From NCBI GenBank assembly GCA_045617905.1, contig JAZLJO010000020.1:12818-76817 (forward strand): a DNA stretch of 64,000 bases. Reading direction: 5' to 3'. Every line of letters begins with the position of its first letter. The first letter of the stretch is position 1. Below are positions 3,832-22,975 of the stretch, in pieces. The notes under the pieces are model-generated. The model had not been told where the DNA came from, searched no databases, and saw only the letters and a list, made by a program, of their open reading frames with translations. Origin of the DNA: Candidatus Enterousia sp. GTDB lineage: Bacteria; Pseudomonadota; Alphaproteobacteria; Rs-D84. Position numbers and translations under genes: made by a program.

Positions 3832-5187
3832 ATGAAAAAAACTTTGAAACATACAAATACGAGAGAGTTTGTAATGAAATTATTTCCATTATTGGCATGT
3901 CTGATACCATTTGTTGCAAACGGGGCAGATACAAATTGTGCCACCAGAAACAATGTCCCCAGTGGCAAACTGGCACTGCCTGAAATTATTGAATTGGGGC
4001 TTTGCCGTAATCCACAAACAACATCTGCATATTTGGCATCAGAATCCGCACGTTTCGCAAAAAATGCAGGATATGCAAATTATTTACCATCAGTTAATCT
4101 ATCCGCATCTGCATCTATTCCATATAATGATGGCAATCGTGGTGACACATCATATGGTGCCAGTATATCCGCATCATATTTGATTTTTGATTTTGGTAAA
4201 CGTTTGGCAGATTTAAATACATTAACAGAAACATGGCGGGCAAGTGGATTTGAATACGATGAAACCGTTCAAAATTATATTTATGGATTGATTGGTGCGT
4301 ATTACAATTTGTTGAATACAAATGCTGATGTTACCAGTGCCCAATCATTATTGACAGTTGCCAAAACAGCCAAAGACACCGCTGATAAAAAATTCAGGGC
4401 CGGTGTTGTTGCAAAATCTGATGTATTAAAAGCGGCAACTACATTGGCCAGTCGTGAACTAGATTTAGAACGTGCAAAAAACAACCGTGAAATTGCCAAA
4501 GGAACATTGTTGGCTAAGTTATCATTTTCCGCAGACCAAGATATCGATATCGCTGATATGCCTGCAGAATTCGGAACAACAGCAGAAATAAAAAATATTG
4601 ATAAATTAATTGAAATCGCACAAAAAAAACGCCCTGATTTATTACGTGCCACAGCAAATAAAAACGCAGCATGGCATCGACGTAATGCATCATTTTTAAA
4701 AAATTTACCCAGCATTTCTGCATCTGCAACCATAAATTGGAACGATACTGAAATCGATAACATTGGCGGTGATAAATATAACGCTAATATTTCAATTCGT
4801 GCTTCAATGCCAATATTTGCAGGATTTGCAAATATGTACGGCACACGACAGGCCCAGGCAAATTATAACCGTGCAACAGAACAAGAACGAGCAACCCAAG
4901 ATTCAGCAATTTTAGATATATTTACTGCATATCAAAATTACAAAACTGCACAAACCGTATTAACACAAACCAATACGTTATTGGCATCTGCCACAGAAAG
5001 TGAACGTGTTACCGCTGGTATGTATAAAGTTGGCAAAGCAACAATGTTGGATTGGCAAACCGCACAATCAGAATTGGTTTCTGCCCAAAAACAAAACAAT
5101 GCAGCAAAATACGATTTATTTACAAAACGTGCCGCCGTTGCGTTGGCTGTTGGTGAAATTCGAGTAGATATGGAAAAGGGAGAATAA
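3832..5187 (+). CDS. tolC: TolC-family outer membrane efflux protein
   Basis: 451 aa with a signal peptide (alternative start 3874, MKLFPLLACLIPFVANGA). It has two OEP-type repeats and sits directly upstream of macA/macB. Confidence 0.8.
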   Translation: MKKTLKHTNTREFVMKLFPLLACLIPFVANGADTNCATRNNVPSGKLALPEIIELGLCRNPQTTSAYLASESARFAKNAGYANYLPSVNLSASASIPYNDGNRGDTSYGASISASYLIFDFGKRLADLNTLTETWRASGFEYDETVQNYIYGLIGAYYNLLNTNADVTSAQSLLTVAKTAKDTADKKFRAGVVAKSDVLKAATTLASRELDLERAKNNREIAKGTLLAKLSFSADQDIDIADMPAEFGTTAEIKNIDKLIEIAQKKRPDLLRATANKNAAWHRRNASFLKNLPSISASATINWNDTEIDNIGGDKYNANISIRASMPIFAGFANMYGTRQAQANYNRATEQERATQDSAILDIFTAYQNYKTAQTVLTQTNTLLASATESERVTAGMYKVGKATMLDWQTAQSELVSAQKQNNAAKYDLFTKRAAVALAVGEIRVDMEKGE

Positions 5188-15022: not shown

Positions 15023-15098
15023 TGGTGCCGGCCACAAGACTTGAACTTGCGACCCCTTCATTACGAATGAAGTGCTCTACCAGCTGAGCTAGGCCGGC
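15023..15098 (-). tRNA. tRNA-Thr (CGU)
   Basis: Reverse complement GCCGGCCTAGCTCAGCTGGTAGAGCACTTCATTCGTAATGAAGGGGTCGCAAGTTCAAGTCTTGTGGCCGGCACCA. Cloverleaf is complete, anticodon loop TTCGTAA. Confidence 0.9.
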
Positions 15099-15235: not shown

Positions 15236-18169
15236 TTAAAATAATGTTCCCCAACTTTTGTTTTTTGTTAATCTGGATATTTCCAATATTTGTTGAATAT
15301 CCGCATTTTGATTATTCATTGATTCAAAATTTTCTTGGGACAACAATACATAAACCCACTGTGAATTCATGCGTTCAGATTCCGGTAATTCATTTATTTT
15401 TGCAATCCAATCTATGGCCCCCAATTCTTTGGATTTAGTATCGGGATTATTTACACGATCATTTCCCTTGGTTTCAACAACATAAATTTTATTGCCAATT
15501 TTAATCATAAAATCTGGATAATATGTTGCCAACATGCCATCGGTCCGTAAATATCTGAAACGTGCAAAAGTGTGTTTATTTTCGTTAATTTTTATAACAC
15601 GTTCAACTGATGAATCATTATCACAGGCGATTAAGAAATTACGTTCCAATTCGCCTTTGTTCGACGGATAAAATGTTTTTTCATAAATTGATTTTTTGAT
15701 ATCCAGTGCATAATTATCACGTCCAACCATTTTATCAACCGATGAAAAATAATGTTTTTCAACGATTGCTTCTTTGACATCAATATTATTATGCATTTCA
15801 TATATAGCCTTGGACAATTCAGCCATGGTATGTTGAATTATTGTTGTTTTTGATAAAACCAATATTCGCCAATTGCCATCAATCATTGGATCAAATGACT
15901 GGTCAAACAAACGTGTTCGTATATATTTATCGATTGTACGAACAAGTAACGTTTGATCAATTTGCATTAATGGCATTTCTGTTTTATGACCATTCGATGC
16001 AACCTTTGCAAAATTGGTTGTTATCGCACTTAACATTTTTTGCAAATATTCATTATACGATTTTGCGGTAAATATATCGCCCCTCACTTTGTATTCACCA
16101 AATTTTGTATGAACCTGCATTTCGGTACCGATAAATCTGTCTGCGTCGTCATGTGGAACCATTGCCTTTAACTGTTCTAAATTCCAACCATCCAAAGGAC
16201 GCATATTATCAACCGATATTTCTTTGCCAGATAATGTTTCTTCTTTATCCTGGATAATATGTGGCCAAAACATATCATAATCGGCATAATTTTCTTTTAA
16301 TCCAACATTTATCATATCCCCCAATGCGGTTGTAGTATCACGTGGCCGTTCGTGTGTTTCGACGGCAACCATATCATGTCCCATTTGGTCATAAAATGAT
16401 TTAAATGCGGGATGTTCAACAACAAACAATGTATCCAAATAATTTGATGGGGCCTGCTTTAATTCATAGATATTACGTCTGTTTTCAGCCTTAATCTCGT
16501 CATATTCACGTCCACGCCACATTAAACGCAGACCACGTCCCAAAACCTGTTCCAGCAATATCGGGGCCTGTGATGAACGCAGTGGCACAATCACACAAAT
16601 ATTATTTACATCAAAGCCTTCGCGTAACATTAAAACACTGACCACAACCTTTGGATGTGATTGTTTATCCAATGTAAATAATTTTTGTTTTAAATTTAAC
16701 CATTCATCTTCTTTTAATTCGCCCTTTTTATTAGAATCAATTTGCATAATATCGTTATCCGATAAACCTTCGGATTTAAAGAAATCGCATACAAATGGTG
16801 AAACATCGGTATCTTCACAAACAACCATTAATTTCGGATGTTTGTTTATATCGTGTTTGGCAAAATCGTCTTCTAGGATTCGCAAACGCGACAGGCCCGC
16901 ACGCAACATTAAACGTTGTCCATCCGACAGACCGATTACTTTGCCGGCACTGTTACGAACAGATTTAAAATCAATTTCAGAATTTGCCAGCGACGCAATT
17001 TCTTTGCGTTCATCCAAAATAAATGTTTTTACAAATCCGGCACGCATGGCGGTTGTTAATTCAAAATTAACCACGATATGCGGAAAAAAATGTTTTGTTT
17101 CATTTTTACCACCACCGGTTACCGAATACGGGGTTGCAGAAAAATCAATTTGAATATAATTTGCATTTTTACCATTTGAAATGGTATTTAATGATTTTTG
17201 CCATTCAACGTCTTGGGTTATGCCATAACTTTTATTTTCATGAATATGATGGGCTTCGTCATTAAATACGCAAATATTTGGTAAATTTGATAAATATTCC
17301 AAAATACCACCACGCAATAATTTTGAATCCAATATATCCAATGCATTACCGGCGGTAATACCGGGGGAAACCGGTAAAATATCACGTGCCATAGTGCGTG
17401 TTTGTGACAAATCAAAATTATCAGTTTGCACGTCCGTTTGTTCATCATCGTCATCATCGCATAATGCGTGCCAATTTGTTACGGCAATTAAACCATCACC
17501 CGTTGTTTTTTTACCGATTTCGGTTTTATCGGCAACCGCATTTTGGACAAATGAATATATATCATGGCGATATTTTTCAGGAATAAATAAATCCTGATTG
17601 CTTTTTATATCCGACGTATCAAAATTTCTGTTACCGGGGGTAATTTCTTTGCCACGGAACGCATCCAACAACCGTTCATAAACAATTAAACCAGGTGCAA
17701 TTAACAAAAAGTTTTTTGTATATTTAACTCCATTATTTGTTTGATGTTTTGCATTTAAATATTGCCATACCAATAACGCATTTAACACCCATGTTTTTCC
17801 CGTCCCCGTTGCCATTTTTACACAATATTTTGGGCATTTATATTTTGGGTTGTTTACAACATTAATAAATTCAGTATCGGTTGGGACATTTTCACCAATT
17901 GCAGAATACATATCCGATACAGATGTTGATTTTAATATTTCATGAACATAAATAGTATTCAAAATTGCCTGGCGTTGGCCAGGATGAAAATTACGATCAC
18001 GAATATCACAAAACGATGAATCAAACCAATAACGCAACAGGTCTGCGGTTATTAGTGATACATTATTTATAAAATACCCAGATTCCCAATCCGCATTCAC
18101 CTGTTTTGTTAATTGGGCCGCAAATTGCAATGGAATATCACGTATTCCCGTATTTTTTGGTGCCGTCAT
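15236..18169 (-). CDS. res: type III restriction enzyme Res subunit (SF2 helicase plus C-terminal PD-(D/E)xK nuclease)
   Basis: Walker A MATGTGKTW, DEAH box FNDEAHHIH, helicase motif VI QVLGRGLR, and C-terminal nuclease motif YYPDFMIKIGNKIYVVETKG. ATG 18169 is preferred (GGGGG SD 5 nt upstream); ATG 18181 is an alternative. Confidence 0.9.
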   Translation of the reverse strand: MTAPKNTGIRDIPLQFAAQLTKQVNADWESGYFINNVSLITADLLRYWFDSSFCDIRDRNFHPGQRQAILNTIYVHEILKSTSVSDMYSAIGENVPTDTEFINVVNNPKYKCPKYCVKMATGTGKTWVLNALLVWQYLNAKHQTNNGVKYTKNFLLIAPGLIVYERLLDAFRGKEITPGNRNFDTSDIKSNQDLFIPEKYRHDIYSFVQNAVADKTEIGKKTTGDGLIAVTNWHALCDDDDDEQTDVQTDNFDLSQTRTMARDILPVSPGITAGNALDILDSKLLRGGILEYLSNLPNICVFNDEAHHIHENKSYGITQDVEWQKSLNTISNGKNANYIQIDFSATPYSVTGGGKNETKHFFPHIVVNFELTTAMRAGFVKTFILDERKEIASLANSEIDFKSVRNSAGKVIGLSDGQRLMLRAGLSRLRILEDDFAKHDINKHPKLMVVCEDTDVSPFVCDFFKSEGLSDNDIMQIDSNKKGELKEDEWLNLKQKLFTLDKQSHPKVVVSVLMLREGFDVNNICVIVPLRSSQAPILLEQVLGRGLRLMWRGREYDEIKAENRRNIYELKQAPSNYLDTLFVVEHPAFKSFYDQMGHDMVAVETHERPRDTTTALGDMINVGLKENYADYDMFWPHIIQDKEETLSGKEISVDNMRPLDGWNLEQLKAMVPHDDADRFIGTEMQVHTKFGEYKVRGDIFTAKSYNEYLQKMLSAITTNFAKVASNGHKTEMPLMQIDQTLLVRTIDKYIRTRLFDQSFDPMIDGNWRILVLSKTTIIQHTMAELSKAIYEMHNNIDVKEAIVEKHYFSSVDKMVGRDNYALDIKKSIYEKTFYPSNKGELERNFLIACDNDSSVERVIKINENKHTFARFRYLRTDGMLATYYPDFMIKIGNKIYVVETKGNDRVNNPDTKSKELGAIDWIAKINELPESERMNSQWVYVLLSQENFESMNNQNADIQQILEISRLTKNKSWGTLF

Positions 18170-18181
18170 TTTTACCCCCAT

Positions 18182-20185
18182 TTATAATTCAACAATTGCC
18201 ATTGATTCAAATCCGAAAACGTCAACCGCTTTGACACAGATTTTTCGTTTATGATTAACTTTGCCAACAATTATCTCGGCAGAATGCACGATGCGCAATG
18301 GGTCATCATCATTGGCGGTATTTTCACGATAATCCTGCCAAACACTGCGGAAAGTATTACCATCATAATCGGGGTCAATTGACCAATATTCAATTAAATC
18401 CAATGGGCTGGCCCCCATAATTTGTTGAACGGTTTCTTTGGATTTATCATCCAATGGCAGGTTATCTGGGGATAACAAAACATAGTTATCCAATGTAACA
18501 ATCAGTTTTTCTTTGCCGTCTTCGTTTGCGGGTTTTACAACAGGTTCTTTGATTGTTAAATATTGCAAAGAATTAAAGCGTATTTTTTTATTTTCAACCA
18601 AATCTTTGTAATCTTTCTTTTTCAGCAAATCCAATAAATCAGGTGGTATTACCAAAACATCAATGGATGATTTATCCAATGTCGCCAATTTATCACCAAT
18701 ATCAAAACTGAAATTCCACCCCAATATGATAACACGTTTCCATCCCCCCATAAATGCATCACGCATTTCCAGCGCACGTTCAATTGTATTCGCATTTGTT
18801 ATTTTATTGGGACTGTCCACGATTACCAATGTTGATTCATCGCGCATATGTCCAACATTTAATGGGGCATCCGCGTCATCAAATGGCAATGCCCCATACA
18901 GGCCCATAATAACCCGTGCCAGATCGGACACACGACGGAATTGTTTGTCAGACAAGAATGCCTCGCGCGAGTAATCGCCAATTGAATGATACAGGAACGG
19001 TTTACAATCGGGTATATCAATCAGGCGTTTGCGCATAATCATGGTGGACGGTTTACCCAAATCAGACGTTATCCAACGACGCCCTAATTTTTCCACAACG
19101 GCGGTGGTTGTTCCCGAACCACCAAAGAAATCCGCCACAATGGAATTTTCATTTGACGATGCTTTGATTATACGTTCCAATAATTTTTCTGGTTTTTGAG
19201 TATTGTAATGCACATTTTCTGCGGCAGTTCCTTGTACATTAATAATGTCTGACCAGATATCATCCAACGCAACCCCAGGCATATCGTTTAAATAAAATTT
19301 TATATTTATAATTCCATTTTTTGACACAACAACTCTATTTTCTAAATTCAATTGTACCATTGATTCATCCGATCTTGTCCCTTTTGGTTGTAATCTATAA
19401 CGTCCCCTTTCATCTTCGTATTTAAACGTAGAATTAATATAATCATCTGTGTAATCTTGGTATTGTCTATTAAAAATAAAATTCTGTGTTTTTACATAAT
19501 AAAAAATACAATCATGATTACGTCCGAATTGATTCGATTTTGCTTTTCCTCCTTTCATCGTATCACGTTTCCAGACAATCTCATTTCTGAAATTATCTTT
19601 TCCAAATATATCATCTAACATGACTTTCAAATAATGACCGGCGTGCCAATCACAATGAACGTAAATTGAACCTTGGTCGGACAACAATTCTTTCATCAGT
19701 ACCAAACGTGGATACAGCATTTTCAAATACGATATTGTGCCATCCGCCCATGTGTCGGAATATGCGAATTGTTCCAAAACGGTTGGTTTTTGTTCCACGT
19801 CCCCATTTGGCAAGGTTATTTTTGTTCGATAATCTGCCTTGGAATCAAAGGGCGGATCAATATAAATCAAATCAATTTTGCCACGCATACTTGGCAATCC
19901 GGTTGCTGGATCACCCGATAATAATGCCTGCATCGCAAACAGGTTATCGCCATGGATTAAACGATTAAACCAACCGTCCGCGTCACACAAGGCGCCGTCG
20001 GTTGGTGGACAACACGCCCTGATTTCACCACGGAACAGGCCACTGCTGTCACGGGCGGGTAAAACATATTCATTTGTTTGCAACATTAATTTATTATCAG
20101 ATTGTGCACGTTGTAATATTTTTTCAACCGTACGTTTACCCTGTGCAACAACATCCGGTAACATTTCAATCAGTGTTTTTGTCAT
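18182..20185 (-). CDS. mod: type III R-M Mod subunit (beta-class N6-adenine/N4-cytosine DNA methyltransferase)
   Basis: Motif IV IYIDPPF precedes motif I FFGGSGTT with a variable region between them, which is the Mod architecture. ATG 20185 lies 5 nt after GGGGG. The stop abuts res. Confidence 0.9.
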   Translation of the reverse strand: MTKTLIEMLPDVVAQGKRTVEKILQRAQSDNKLMLQTNEYVLPARDSSGLFRGEIRACCPPTDGALCDADGWFNRLIHGDNLFAMQALLSGDPATGLPSMRGKIDLIYIDPPFDSKADYRTKITLPNGDVEQKPTVLEQFAYSDTWADGTISYLKMLYPRLVLMKELLSDQGSIYVHCDWHAGHYLKVMLDDIFGKDNFRNEIVWKRDTMKGGKAKSNQFGRNHDCIFYYVKTQNFIFNRQYQDYTDDYINSTFKYEDERGRYRLQPKGTRSDESMVQLNLENRVVVSKNGIINIKFYLNDMPGVALDDIWSDIINVQGTAAENVHYNTQKPEKLLERIIKASSNENSIVADFFGGSGTTTAVVEKLGRRWITSDLGKPSTMIMRKRLIDIPDCKPFLYHSIGDYSREAFLSDKQFRRVSDLARVIMGLYGALPFDDADAPLNVGHMRDESTLVIVDSPNKITNANTIERALEMRDAFMGGWKRVIILGWNFSFDIGDKLATLDKSSIDVLVIPPDLLDLLKKKDYKDLVENKKIRFNSLQYLTIKEPVVKPANEDGKEKLIVTLDNYVLLSPDNLPLDDKSKETVQQIMGASPLDLIEYWSIDPDYDGNTFRSVWQDYRENTANDDDPLRIVHSAEIIVGKVNHKRKICVKAVDVFGFESMAIVEL

Positions 20186-20212
20186 ATTGCCCCCGTTTTG
20201 TGTTAAAACAAA

Positions 20213-20378
20213 AACCACCGGAAAAATCGGGTGGTTGGAGGTTCAGAACTATTATGCTATAAAAATAGTGTGCTTATTTTATGGGCATGCCCATATTATT
20301 CACAGCCCTCCAACCCTTTTAAGTTGGAGGTTTTTAACGTCCCCGCAGACGTATAGCATTCAGAGGTTCTGACACCCC
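20213..20378. repeat. structured GC-enriched element, copy A (between the mod start and the AT-rich module)
   Basis: Perfect stems: AACCACC/GGTGGTT (20213-19/20230-36), TCAGAAC/GTTCTGA (20243-49/20366-72), ATGCTATA/TATAGCAT (20254-61/20352-59), CCTCCAAC/GTTGGAGG (20307-14/20323-30). Central palindrome ATGGGCATGCCCAT (20281-94). Confidence 0.7.
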
Positions 20379-20454
20379 AATGGAAAAAATCATTCCATCG
20401 TTTTAATAATAAAAACAACCACACAAAAAATCAAATGAAAACGAATAAAAATAT

Positions 20455-20481: not shown

Positions 20482-20537
20482 TAAAAATGTATGCGAATTG
20501 ATTAATAAATTTCAATTATTTTGATTTTCATTTTTTT

Positions 20538-20858
20538 CTAGAATATTGCCAATATATCTATTTCGTTGATTATTTCATTTAATGATTTATTTGCAAATAA
20601 CTTTGCAGACAAAAACGATTCCGTCATATCTGTTTGATTATCAAATAATTCGTCATACAATTGTTGTGATATACTGTCGTGTTTATTTTTCGTAATCGTT
20701 TCTTCGGATGAATATTCGTATTTTGACAACATTATAAAATATTTATGATTTTCATTAATGCCACTGCTTATCAAATATACAAAATCATTATATTTAAATT
20801 CAATATCACACCCATAAAAGATTTCGTTATATAATTCTTGAATATCTAATTTCTTCAT
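20538..20858 (-). CDS. hypothetical protein, one copy of a repeated ~90-aa domain (immunity-protein-like by context)
   Basis: ATG 20858 follows GGGGCGGA (MKKLDIQELYNEIFYGCDIEFKYNDFVYLI). The track start 20879 is an extension. No family recognised. Confidence 0.55.
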   Translation of the reverse strand: MKKLDIQELYNEIFYGCDIEFKYNDFVYLISSGINENHKYFIMLSKYEYSSEETITKNKHDSISQQLYDELFDNQTDMTESFLSAKLFANKSLNEIINEIDILAIF

Positions 20859-20988
20859 TTTCCGCCCCATTTTTATCACGTTCTAAATACGCACTGGTTA
20901 ATATATAATATTTATCATTGTATAAAATCTCTATATCACCACCATGATATAATTCGTCATAAAATTCAGAAAATGTAAACCCTTGCAT
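20827..20988 (-). pseudogene. 53-codon truncated paralogue of the downstream gene
   Basis: Hand translation MQGFTFSEFYDELYHGGDIEILYNDKYYILTSAYLERDKNGAENEEIRYSRII. Residues 7-32 align about 13/32 identical with the N-terminus of the 20538-20858 product. Below the 60-aa track cutoff. Confidence 0.35.
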
Positions 20989-21010
20989 TTTATAATCCGT
21001 TTATATTCCA

Positions 21011-21577
21011 TCATTTTAATATAAAATATTGCTGATTGGTTGTTTGCATTATATTTTTTATTGTGATTTGCATATTAGGTATTATAACCGAACATAAATC
21101 ATTAAAGTCAGATATTGTACGTTCGTATATTATATTACATTTTTCATCGCGTATTTGCAGCAAACAAGGTTTGATTAAATAAATAACAATATTTTTGTAA
21201 AACAATACAAAACTTACATCGTCAATTTTTTTATTTTCCAAGATGGACACAAATCTATCAAATACATTTCTTTGTGATAAAAATTTTTCACGTTTGTATG
21301 TCATACCAAGTTCAATATCATTTTCTGATAATTTGCTTAATATTTCATGCATTGTTTTGCCAACATTTTCCATTGGAATGTTTAACATATCGTCAAAATT
21401 ATTCCAACTATATTCATATATTTTTTGTGGTTTTGTCTTAAAATATCCATATCCATAATAATTACCATGATAATCAAAATGAAAATCATTAAAATCAAAA
21501 CGAAACAATTCTATAAAATCCTGTTTTTGTTTTTCTTTATTTATGGCAACCAATAATTTATCTAATGCGTTTTTCAT
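21011..21577 (-). CDS. hypothetical protein with two copies of the same repeated domain
   Basis: 188 aa. The motifs FRFDFNDFHFDY and FVLFYKNIVIYLI resemble FKYNDFVYLI of the downstream gene. Its ATG overlaps the upstream stop (ATGA). Confidence 0.55.
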   Translation of the reverse strand: MKNALDKLLVAINKEKQKQDFIELFRFDFNDFHFDYHGNYYGYGYFKTKPQKIYEYSWNNFDDMLNIPMENVGKTMHEILSKLSENDIELGMTYKREKFLSQRNVFDRFVSILENKKIDDVSFVLFYKNIVIYLIKPCLLQIRDEKCNIIYERTISDFNDLCSVIIPNMQITIKNIMQTTNQQYFILK

Positions 21578-21978
21578 TTGTTATGCTCCTGTATCTTGCG
21601 TATTATATCACCATATTCTTTTAATTCGTTATCACTGATTTGCCTGCCATTATTTTTACGTATCATATAATCTCCATCTTTAACGAAATCATGAACATGG
21701 ATATTGCCTTTATTTAATTTATAATGATTTTCATGTCCAAAATCTATATCTATGACGGGAGCATGATTTTTATAAATACGCATTTGTGTATATTTATTAT
21801 TTTTATTTACGGCAATATAAACATCCGATTTGCCAGAATACTCAGGTAACCCTGCTGATGTTTTTCCTTTGGCTTTTATAACTTTTTTACCATAAAATAA
21901 ATTTGTTGTTTCAAACAATGTATCATCAGGATTTAGATATGTAAAATTATTGCTTTTAAAAGCACCGCGACCACCCAT
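21574..21978 (-). CDS. small His-rich hypothetical protein (candidate effector/toxin, unassigned)
   Basis: 134 aa starting MGGRGAFKSN, with the motif DIDFGHENHYKLNKGNIHVHDF. Translationally coupled at both ends (TAATG, ATGA). GGGGGA SD lies inside the upstream gene. Confidence 0.55.
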   Translation of the reverse strand: MGGRGAFKSNNFTYLNPDDTLFETTNLFYGKKVIKAKGKTSAGLPEYSGKSDVYIAVNKNNKYTQMRIYKNHAPVIDIDFGHENHYKLNKGNIHVHDFVKDGDYMIRKNNGRQISDNELKEYGDIIRKIQEHNK

Positions 21979-22649
21979 TATTTATCCCCCATATTTGAAT
22001 TTGATATCCAGTTGTAAGTTGTATTATGTATATGTAATATTGGTATAGAGCTGTATTTAACAGCAAAATTACCACCATACATAATAATTTTACATGGTTT
22101 CAATCTATTTAACATCTCAACAAAACCGTTTTGAAAAAATTGTTTAGAATTATTATTCTTAGATATACCAACTGTTGAGACCGCTATAACACCATGTTTA
22201 TAAATACCATTAAAACAAAAATCATAACTATTTTTTCCAGCCCATGAAACATTCGGTATAACATTTATGCCATTTTTTTGAAAAATAGTCCCAATTAACC
22301 GCGTTCTAAATATATTATATATTTGAATTGGTTTAGGCATATCTAACAGTATAGAAAAATCGGGTTCTATAACACATGGGAACTTTTGTAATATAGGTAT
22401 ATATTTATATGGATTATTCCAAACAGATTCTATCTTTCTATCTTCTTGAAAAAAATGAACTATTTTATTTTTTTCTTTTGTTTTATATATATCAGAAAAA
22501 GCGATCGCTTCATTCGGTATTTGATCAAAAAGTTGTTTTTTTAAAACAGGAATTTGATACTCATTTGTTAAATTTTCATAATCTATATCATTCATATGAT
22601 ATTTTTTATCAAAAAAAACACTAATATGTTGCTGCATTTTTATTCTCAT
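21978..22649 (-). CDS. DUF4417-like protein
   Basis: 223 aa. HFFQEDRKIESVWNNPYKYIPILQKFPCVIEPDFSILLDMPKPIQIYNIFRTRLIGTIFQKNGINVIPNVSWAG matches my memory of the DUF4417 (phage/MGE-associated) consensus. Not verifiable here. Confidence 0.6.
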   Translation of the reverse strand: MRIKMQQHISVFFDKKYHMNDIDYENLTNEYQIPVLKKQLFDQIPNEAIAFSDIYKTKEKNKIVHFFQEDRKIESVWNNPYKYIPILQKFPCVIEPDFSILLDMPKPIQIYNIFRTRLIGTIFQKNGINVIPNVSWAGKNSYDFCFNGIYKHGVIAVSTVGISKNNNSKQFFQNGFVEMLNRLKPCKIIMYGGNFAVKYSSIPILHIHNTTYNWISNSNMGDK

Positions 22650-22682
22650 TGTTTATTTATTAAGTTAAATGAGAACTGGGCG

Positions 22683-22860
22683 GTCGGGGTGTTAGAAAAA
22701 TCAAATCGTTAATGATCCCATTGGTTTTTGGGCATGCCTTGAACATATACCAACGGCACCCCGATCATAACATGTAAAAATGCATACAATCGGATTACGA
22801 TGCTTTTGCACCGAACGATTGGGACTTTTCTAAGGTCCCGAACCCAATTCCCATTGGATT
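22683..22860. repeat. structured GC-enriched element, copy B (upstream of the DUF4417 operon)
   Basis: 22683-22720 pairs with 22824-22860 (about 31 bp including 2 G.T), for example TTAGAAAA/TTTTCTAA, TCGGG/CCCGA, ATCGTT/AACGAT. Central GGGCATGCC at 22740-48. Confidence 0.7.
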
Positions 22861-22975
22861 CGCTACAAAACATATATTTATTTTATCAAAAAATCAATAC
22901 AAAAATATAAATATGTATTTTTACAGGATTTGTATCATATGTATTATTATCTAAATTGATGGTATTTTATATATT

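Follow-up and report, generated by a model that had tools for sequence, protein, structure and literature searches.

A leader RNA with two conserved, mutually exclusive predicted folds and a terminator-like hairpin upstream of a type III mod-res operon in Candidatus Enterousia

What keeps type III restriction-modification (R-M) systems safe for their hosts is poorly understood beyond phase variation, and the mod-res locus of a Candidatus Enterousia sp. genome raises the question of whether an RNA element placed directly before the operon takes part in this control. The locus lies in a 64-kb stretch of DNA (positions 12,818-76,817 of contig JAZLJO010000020.1), here called the window, and the leader is read in the minus sense. 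A sequence-only reading had described upstream of mod four segments with the pairings of an attenuator, and the segments, their pairings, the U-run and a hairpin of the plus strand were all recovered where it had placed them. We found that these hairpins are the 3' half of a leader of approximately 200 nucleotides (nt), a relative of the small RNA (sRNA) sRNA-Xcc1. The explanation that we prefer, with some reserve, is that this leader (from approximately 20399 to 20205, minus strand) is a two-state, cis-acting RNA that controls read-through into mod-res, the four segments being its expression platform.

20330-20323, minus strand: segment 1, CCTCCAAC
20315-20307, minus strand: segment 2, GGTTGGAGG
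20241-20233, minus strand: segment 3, CCTCCAACC (RNA CCUCCAACC), the contested C-tract
20205..20236, minus strand: terminator-like hairpin T (pairing 3:4), AACCACC (20236-20230) with GGTGGTT (GGUGGUU in RNA, 20219-20213), then TTTGTTTT; U-tract at 20214-20205

Segment 3 overlaps the 5' arm of T (AACCACC), and the stem of T ends 27 nt before the ATG of mod (20185). RNAfold formed hairpins 1:2 and 3:4 together in a 176-nt stretch (folding z = -3.1), and hairpin 3:4 is present in every RNAfold fold; for the full leader (20404-20186) the folding z is -5.5. The exact 8-mer GTTGGAGG occurs four times in the window, compared with 0.56 expected, a count that was reached in none of 100 shuffles, and three of the four copies are inside the leader, within approximately 100 nt. 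The element, initially delimited to 150 nt, extends to approximately 200 nt by a 5' arm (20380-20352) that pairs with 20261-20235. Its parts are listed below, where folds A and B are the two alternative structures described afterwards.

20205..20404, minus strand: whole structured leader, Xcc1-like with a 5' extension, approximately 200 nt; match to covariance model R1 of 48.3 bits, E 1e-13
20378..20400, minus strand: 5' hairpin P1h, CGAUGGAA ... UUCCAUUG, in the minimum-free-energy fold
20352..20380, minus strand: 5' arm, formed by the 5' strands of LRa, LRb and LRc, pairing with 20261-20235
20380-20375 (UUGGGG) with 20240-20235 (CUCCAA), minus strand: helix LRa of fold A
20372-20366 (UCAGAAC) with 20249-20243 (GUUCUGA), minus strand: helix LRb of fold A, also picked up as a repeat
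20359-20352 (AUGCUAUA) with 20261-20254 (UAUAGCAU), minus strand: helix LRc of fold A
20337..20352, minus strand: short hairpin P2, ACGUC ... GACGU, which is long (40-50 nt) in relatives
20307..20330, minus strand: hairpin P3, segments 1:2, with the assigned role of anti-antiterminator
20268..20305, minus strand: hairpin P4, present in both folds; its internal loops are A-rich and conserved, and its inner stem is GGGCAUGCCC (20292-20283)
20249..20268, minus strand: hairpin P5, CUAUU ... AAUAG, fold B only; the loop, UAUAGCAU (20261-20254), serves in fold A as the LRc 3' strand
20233..20249, minus strand: 3' strands of LRb and LRa with segment 3, which pairs with the 5' arm (fold A) or with segment 2 (fold B)

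Relatives of Mod, with 68-82% identity, are present in gut alphaproteobacterial assemblies, several of them labelled Candidatus Enterousia, and more were found in other public assemblies. The regions upstream of the orthologous mod genes fall into two classes: class A, with a homologous leader, and class B, in which a serine recombinase gene with an invertible segment takes its place. Model R1, for which only the mod leaders of class A were used, identified the leader at 18 of the 98 Mod loci searched (Mod identity of 68-82% for the genome loci), and at none of the distant Mod homologues among them. These leaders represent approximately eight sequence types and, across several genomic neighbourhoods, are always attached to the gene they precede. 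No conserved neighbouring protein regulator was found, the neighbours being different and without Pfam domains.

Conservation of the segments upstream of mod homologues and the energies of the alternative folds had been proposed as checks, and both were carried out. Covariation was counted on an alignment of 17 leaders, fitted to fold A and not to fold B. The MAFFT alignments (A1-A3) misalign P2, P4, P5 and LRc in some types, so that LRc and P5 were judged by direct complementarity searches and not by column counts. In fold A, the 5' arm (20380-20352) lies on 20261-20235 as an interrupted rod of approximately 21 base pairs (bp) that closes a junction of P2, P3 and P4, and T follows directly. 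Over LRa, LRb, P3 and T, 97.2% of the cells are paired, a level that none of 500 shuffles reached (slid controls were 36-56% paired), with changes on both sides at 15 of the 24 pairs; such changes affect all six pairs of LRb and five of the seven pairs of P3. LRc differs in sequence in every leader type and its complementarity is always kept, over 7-11 bp (GUUUUUAUC:GAUAAAAAC, AAUAUAUU:AAUAUAUU, CACCUAAAAG:CUUUUAGGUG, GCUUUAUC:GAUAAAGC and GAGUAUG:CAUACUC in relatives, AUGCUAUA:UAUAGCAU in the window).

Fold B is built around the segment 2:3 helix, which encloses P4 and P5 and measures 9 bp in the window (9-11 bp in relatives). This helix is also paired at 97.2%, again reached by none of 500 shuffles, and six of its nine pairs have changes on both sides. 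One of its pairs lies outside P3 and LRa (GC in 6 leaders, AU in 4, GU in 3 and UA in 3) and cannot be a by-product of fold A, the fold to which the alignment was fitted. The P5 stem changes between types and stays paired (AAUCA:UGAUU, GAGCA:UGCUC, CUAUU:AAUAG), and constrained folds of 10 leader types place P4 and P5 inside the segment 2:3 stem (a single hairpin in locus L009). Pairings 1:2, 2:3 and 3:4 are thus each kept by compensatory changes in the leaders upstream of Mod orthologues, as the proposal of mutually exclusive hairpins implied, and the covariation indicates that both exclusive folds are maintained by evolution.

Hairpin T was identified in all 10 leader types examined, with a 7-bp GC-rich stem and 8-9 U in the following 12 nt. 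Its stem ends 25-27 nt before the AUG in nine of the 10 types (49 nt in L082), which leaves no room for a mod promoter downstream of T. The alignments therefore show two predicted, conserved exclusive folds together with a conserved terminator-like hairpin and U-tract immediately before mod. In the window, fold B takes four of the seven nucleotides of the T 5' strand (3-5 nt in relatives, and up to five, GACCG, with the 11-bp version of the helix).

The two folds are far from equal in energy. In the window, fold A is the minimum-free-energy structure, with -68.1 kcal/mol, versus -52.2 kcal/mol for a forced fold B, and in a transcript cut just before the 3' strand of T the values are -57.7 and -48.0 kcal/mol, respectively. 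All six leader types computed favour fold A, by 10-20 kcal/mol as full leaders and by 5-18 kcal/mol as cut transcripts. Because fold A is far more stable, termination would be the thermodynamic default, and read-through would need the 5' arm to be delayed or occupied, through a kinetic window or a helper.

The operon and the signals that flank the leader are the following.

20183..20194, minus strand: Shine-Dalgarno (SD) sequence GGGGG (20194-20190) and start codon of mod (20185-20183)
15236..20185, minus strand: mod-res operon that follows the leader; type III mod gene, 20185-18182, and res gene, 18181-15236
20406..20434, minus strand: sigma-70-like promoter of the leader found by a promoter scan, -35 TTGATT (20434-20429), 17 nt, -10 TATTAT (20411-20406)

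The products of mod and res have the Pfam domains N6_N4_Mtase and ResIII, and PADLOC assigned them to MTase_III (1.8e-82) and REase_III (8e-25). The position of the promoter would place the transcription start of the leader near 20399, and a promoter is present at the same relative position in homologous leaders (TTGAAA-18-TATGTT) and in a second copy of the RNA in the window (TTGATT-17-TATGTT; copy 2, see below). With the upstream operon closed by its own terminator (20481-20455) and a promoter to itself, the leader is a separate unit of approximately 215 nt.

We propose that in the closed state, fold A, the 5' arm would zip onto 20261-20235 and hold the C-tract of segment 3, leaving the 5' strand of T free, so that T and its U-tract would form and transcription would stop 19-27 nt before the mod start codon. 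In fold B, the fold of sRNA-Xcc1, the segment 2:3 helix would take part of the T 5' strand and the RNA polymerase would read through. Segment 2:3 would then be the antiterminator, P3 (1:2) an anti-antiterminator and the 5' arm a second competitor for segment 3. That T is an actual terminator, causing premature termination, is what we infer from this arrangement. Our best guess for the input is RNA-RNA kinetics, a competition during transcription that is possibly tuned in trans by the leader's own stable Xcc1-like core, which would bind nascent leaders at their 5' arm; we favour an input of this kind because the arm pairs are hypervariable yet always complementary, and because other members of the family work by RNA-RNA pairing. 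A protein input or a purely fixed partition may act instead.

A more speculative version, which we consider distinctly unlikely, is a self-sensing switch, in which the stable core from earlier transcripts would pair in trans, by its lineage-specific P5 loop and tail, with the nascent 5' arm and prevent fold A and termination. Such a switch would amount to RNA-only positive feedback and could make type III R-M expression bistable (ON/OFF cells or delayed establishment); it would be a functional equivalent of the invertible promoter of sister genomes described below, and would serve mobile elements as a general gatekeeper module of their toxic operons.

A further pairing concerns the 5' end of the leader. 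The 3' side of P1h with the following G-tract (CCAUUGGGG) is complementary to the loop and 3' strand of T (UUCCGGUGG), and the duplex in the window has -12.4 kcal/mol, a value reached by 4% of shuffles. This complementarity between the 5' end and the terminator loop recurs in most leader types: 9-15 bp between the 5' hairpin and its loop (CCAAUGGGA in relatives) and the T loop with the first bases of the 3' strand (UCCCGUUGG), corresponding to 20378-20400 with 20213-20223 in the window. Its elements are also present in L006, L009, L011, L016 and L164, and in L016 a compensatory change replaces GGGA:UCCC by GGAA:UUCC. The pairing might stabilise fold A as a loop-loop contact, or else serve as a second antiterminator.

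Two other structural candidates were not retained. A pseudoknot between the junction and the P5 loop was rejected, as the minimum-free-energy folds show a nested extension of the long-range rod, with P5 in the other fold. A tRNA-like acceptor stem with NCCA (RNase P mimicry) was dropped as a defining feature, since L011 and L013 read GUC instead of GCC. The tip of P4 is a perfect 14-bp palindrome (ATGGGCATGCCCAT, 20279-20292), where copy 2 has GGCATGCC; as relatives have other sequences in the same hairpin, the palindrome behaves as an RNA stem and not as a conserved DNA operator.

The relation to a known RNA family came from the locus L007, whose segment 2-P4-P5-segment 3 region is aligned end to end by the Rfam model of sRNA-Xcc1 (RF02221), the outer stem of the model being segment 2:3. 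The L007 leader scored 34.6 bits (E 1.8e-4), below the gathering score of 53 bits, and the window region 20170-20440 gave no sRNA-Xcc1 match at E up to 10. At the gathering score, Rfam returned only tRNAs for the window and nine related loci, and permissive scans of the window leader gave nothing meaningful. As in sRNA-Xcc1, an outer stem (2:3) closes P4, with its A-rich internal loops, and P5, and is followed by an N-CC tail (CCUCCAACC-A-CCC in the window); the RNA also lies, in all cases, immediately before a gene that is potentially harmful and carried by a mobile element. Other sRNA-Xcc1 members were reported upstream of symE in integron cassettes (bioRxiv 10.1101/2025.06.18.660453) and, in APSE phage, upstream of an ORF6N gene (bioRxiv 10.1101/2020.03.17.996009).

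A blastn search of the L007 leader against phages and plasmids gave no match. A pattern scan of viral contigs gave 90 matches, most of them unrelated and approximately 19 corresponding to an sRNA-Xcc1 locus of Shiga toxin (Stx) prophages. This locus (L178) contains a bona fide sRNA-Xcc1 (69.1 bits) between a serine recombinase gene and the gene of the AntA antirepressor, and the same 226 nt (L178 4140-4365) are found in 105 phage records, mostly of Stx-converting phages (e.g. AP004402.1 31181-31406), one of which annotates sRNA-Xcc1. L178 shares with the mod leaders the T stem (GACCGCC...GGCGGUU, with no U-tract), a P2-like hairpin and a segment-1-like partner for segment 2, and R1 matches it over 203 nt, including the P2-like hairpin and T, at a weak score (20.4 bits, E 5e-5 to 7e-4). 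Two sequences are complementary to its P5 loop (CUUCUUAUUUG), the SD region of antA (CAAAUAAGGAG) and an upstream copy of it (CAAAUAAG), an arrangement that we take to be the a1b1 - c4 - a2b2 layout of the c4 RNA of phages P1 and P7. The Stx-phage sRNA-Xcc1 locus is, in itself, a leader of approximately 200 nt between the recombinase and antirepressor genes, of which the Rfam model covers an 87-nt core, and its c4-like layout is unannotated in most records.

The window contains a second copy of the RNA:

22642..22897, minus strand: copy 2 with its promoter, -35 22897-22892 and -10 22874-22869; RNA 22865-22666; R1 match of 61 bits, E 1e-17

Copy 2 leads a low-GC operon composed of a DUF4417 gene (22649-21978) and three open reading frames (ORFs) without Pfam domains (21978-21574, 21577-21011 and 20879-20538); the true start of the DUF4417 gene is likely the ATG at 22637, which matches a database protein of 219 amino acids (P0121). 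P1h, LRa, LRb, LRc, P2, P4, P5 and segments 2 and 3 are present in this copy, segment 1 and T are absent, and the arm sequences differ from those of the mod leader. After segment 3, a hairpin between GUUCUCAUU (22676-22668) and AAUGAGAAU (22650-22642) covers the SD and first ATG region; the P1h region, too, is complementary to the 5' strand of this hairpin. An orthologous DUF4417 leader in another genome (L255, 74 bits), which there directly follows mnmG, has compensatory changes in LRc (AAUCGUU:AACGAUU to UCAUAUU:AAUAUGA) and in the segment 2:3 stem (U-A to G-C), and both leaders keep a three-part set, x1 (in the 5' hairpin), x' (after segment 3) and x2 (the SD). No DUF4417 relatives were found in viral contigs, and the RNA is absent where phage-like contigs carry more distantly related DUF4417 genes (L257, L258). 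These observations indicate a modular switch domain, coupled to a terminator before mod-res and to masking of the ribosome-binding site elsewhere. The attenuator logic first proposed for this leader stands, therefore, in its conserved terminator, antiterminator and anti-antiterminator structure; its specificity to R-M systems does not, since the core has the sRNA-Xcc1 architecture, copy 2 leads a DUF4417 operon and relatives precede antirepressor genes of Stx phages.

Several observations weigh against transcription attenuation, for which the support is structural, termination and read-through being predicted. Hairpin T was absent from the output of a simple terminator scan, which we attribute to its interrupted stem, as a contiguous 7-bp stem leaves a 10-nt loop and the scan was limited to loops of 3-8 nt. 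Fold B blocks only four of the seven nucleotides of the T stem in the window and, given the stability of fold A, may form rarely unless helped. The T stem of the Stx-phage relatives lacks the U-tract, and the hairpin has there a role other than termination; copy 2 has the A/B switch without any terminator, so transcription attenuation is not intrinsic to the switch. CCUCC of segment 3 pairs with the SD GGGGG in the minimum-free-energy fold of the full-length leader, and control could thus be translational. Finally, a second copy of the arm targets (LRc 5' strand, with at most one mismatch) was found neither near the mod or res ribosome-binding sites in 10 loci nor elsewhere in the 64-kb window, and no trans target or input signal was identified in these searches.

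Alternatively, the element would be a stand-alone Xcc1-like sRNA gene, with its own promoter and with T as its terminator, the folds being a precursor (A) and a mature stable core of approximately 90 nt (B) that acts in trans, and mod-res being expressed by leak-through. We regard this as unlikely, though not negligible. sRNA-Xcc1 does accumulate as a discrete 88-nt RNA in Xanthomonas (PMC2996969), the complementarity of the Stx-phage P5 loop to the antirepressor SD and to an upstream copy is a classic antisense layout, and hypervariable arms resemble specificity determinants; however, the arm targets have no second copy in mod-res or elsewhere in the window, the leader is always attached to the gene that follows it, in several neighbourhoods, and, as a mod promoter would not fit after T, mod expression depends on events at T regardless. 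That control is mainly translational, with C-rich elements (CCUCC of segment 3 or the T loop) masking the GGGG(G) SD, the 5' hairpin region competing and T being structural only, seems to us quite improbable, even though x1, x' and x2 are conserved in copy 2 and L255, where the x':x2 hairpin covers the ribosome-binding site, and CCUCC is paired with the SD in the window fold just mentioned. L016 (-17.1 kcal/mol, 0 of 500 shuffles) and L006 (-14.6 kcal/mol, fraction 0.016) show strong pairing of the T loop with the ribosome-binding site, but this pairing is not significant in the window (fraction 0.21), L011 (0.35) and L164 (0.32), and as a universal feature it was rejected, being significant in some types only. 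Moreover, the U-tract is conserved specifically in mod leaders and is absent where control is clearly translational (copy 2 and the Stx-phage relative).

A metabolite riboswitch (of S-adenosylmethionine, for example), which the sequence-only reading had mentioned beside attenuation, would use the multi-helix junction as aptamer. The RNA is large and structured, with a closing helix beside a terminator and conserved A-rich internal loops in P4, but no family was matched at E up to 10 in Rfam, the helices near the junction are hypervariable in sequence and the family precedes genes with no shared metabolite logic (mod-res, DUF4417 and the AntA antirepressor; symE according to bioRxiv 10.1101/2025.06.18.660453); nothing points to a riboswitch of this kind, and we find it very improbable. 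Hardly credible are, together, a plus-strand sRNA, a leader-peptide attenuator and a chance arrangement. The plus-strand hairpin at 20307-20330 exists and is followed by TTTTT, which had suggested an sRNA ending there, yet the A-run before segment 1 that gives rise to this T-run is absent from all relatives; a mini-ORF (ATGGGCATGCCCATAAAATAA) starts 12 nt after GGAGG, yet its ATG is absent from relatives; and chance is excluded by the covariation and by the GTTGGAGG count.

In the class B loci (L001, L003, L004, L005, L015 and L160), mod is preceded by a serine recombinase gene (resolvase/invertase-like) and a 93-bp segment, which in L004 (~3870-3965) is inverted relative to L001 (~650-745), L003 and L005, with approximately 96% identity after reverse complementation (counted by eye) and identical flanks. 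The segment looks like an invertible promoter that would give phase-variable expression of mod-res and, being at the same position in sister genomes, suggests that switchable expression of this R-M system is under selection. In the window mod and res abut, while in the closest Mod relatives (L160-L163, 78% identity) they are separated by one or two extra small ORFs, of 124-125 and 55 amino acids and with no Pfam domain. The stretch 20500-22700, between yetF/mnmG and mod-res, has 24-30% GC versus approximately 38% in the surroundings, and a tRNA-Thr gene (15023-15098) lies just beyond the end of res; this layout resembles that of a defence or mobile island.

Among R-M systems, expression of a potentially self-toxic operon is also limited or timed by C proteins, by antisense RNAs (EcoRI and Eco29kI) and by phase variation of type III mod genes, through mechanisms that differ from the one proposed here. 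A review of R-M regulation reports no leader attenuator for any R-M system and, for type III systems, phase variation only (PMC3874152). The leader resembles classical attenuators, and the antisense attenuation of the rep genes of pT181 and pIP501, in combining a terminator, an overlapping antiterminator and an anti-antiterminator, in a system where RNA-RNA pairing may decide the outcome. Unlike them, it lacks a leader peptide, any sensor (tRNA, protein or ligand) and a countertranscript from the opposite strand, the competitor being the 5' arm of the same RNA.

The c4 antisense RNAs of phages P1 and P7 have specificity determinants that are hypervariable yet complementary. Similarly to c4 of the immI loci (RF01695), in every type of mod leader the LRb and LRc 5' strands, upstream of the core, are complementary to the P5 loop and the stretch that follows it, the complementary pairs differ between lineages, and the RNA forms part of the leader of the operon that it precedes; the Stx-phage relative shows the full a1b1 - c4 - a2b2 layout. 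In contrast to c4, none of 10 loci has a downstream copy of the a2b2 type at the mod or res ribosome-binding site, so that blocking of this site as in c4 does not apply to mod-res, and the output appears to be an intrinsic terminator instead of translational repression followed by Rho-dependent termination. The Rfam C4 model has no match in the window leader, where the only isrK match (16 bits) is on the wrong strand.

In the literature searched, sRNA-Xcc1 is treated as a trans-acting sRNA and not as a two-state leader, and no mention was found of a two-state leader in full length, of its 5' arm, of its being coupled to an intrinsic terminator or of its use before a type III R-M operon. The kind of RNA is itself known, from sRNA-Xcc1, c4-like RNAs and terminator/antiterminator attenuators. 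Compared with the 87-nt sRNA-Xcc1 model, the leader described here has approximately 200 nt, with a 5' arm, P2, P3, a competing fold and a U-tract terminator, and the downstream genes are type III mod-res and not symE or an antirepressor gene. For type III R-M systems it offers a concrete RNA device directly before mod-res, in which the covariation-supported exclusive folds define exact mutations. For the family as a whole, sRNA-Xcc1 would be recast as the core of a longer two-state leader, placed on mobile elements before antirepressor genes, symE, DUF4417 operons and R-M systems, with an output module that varies between a terminator and masking of the ribosome-binding site.

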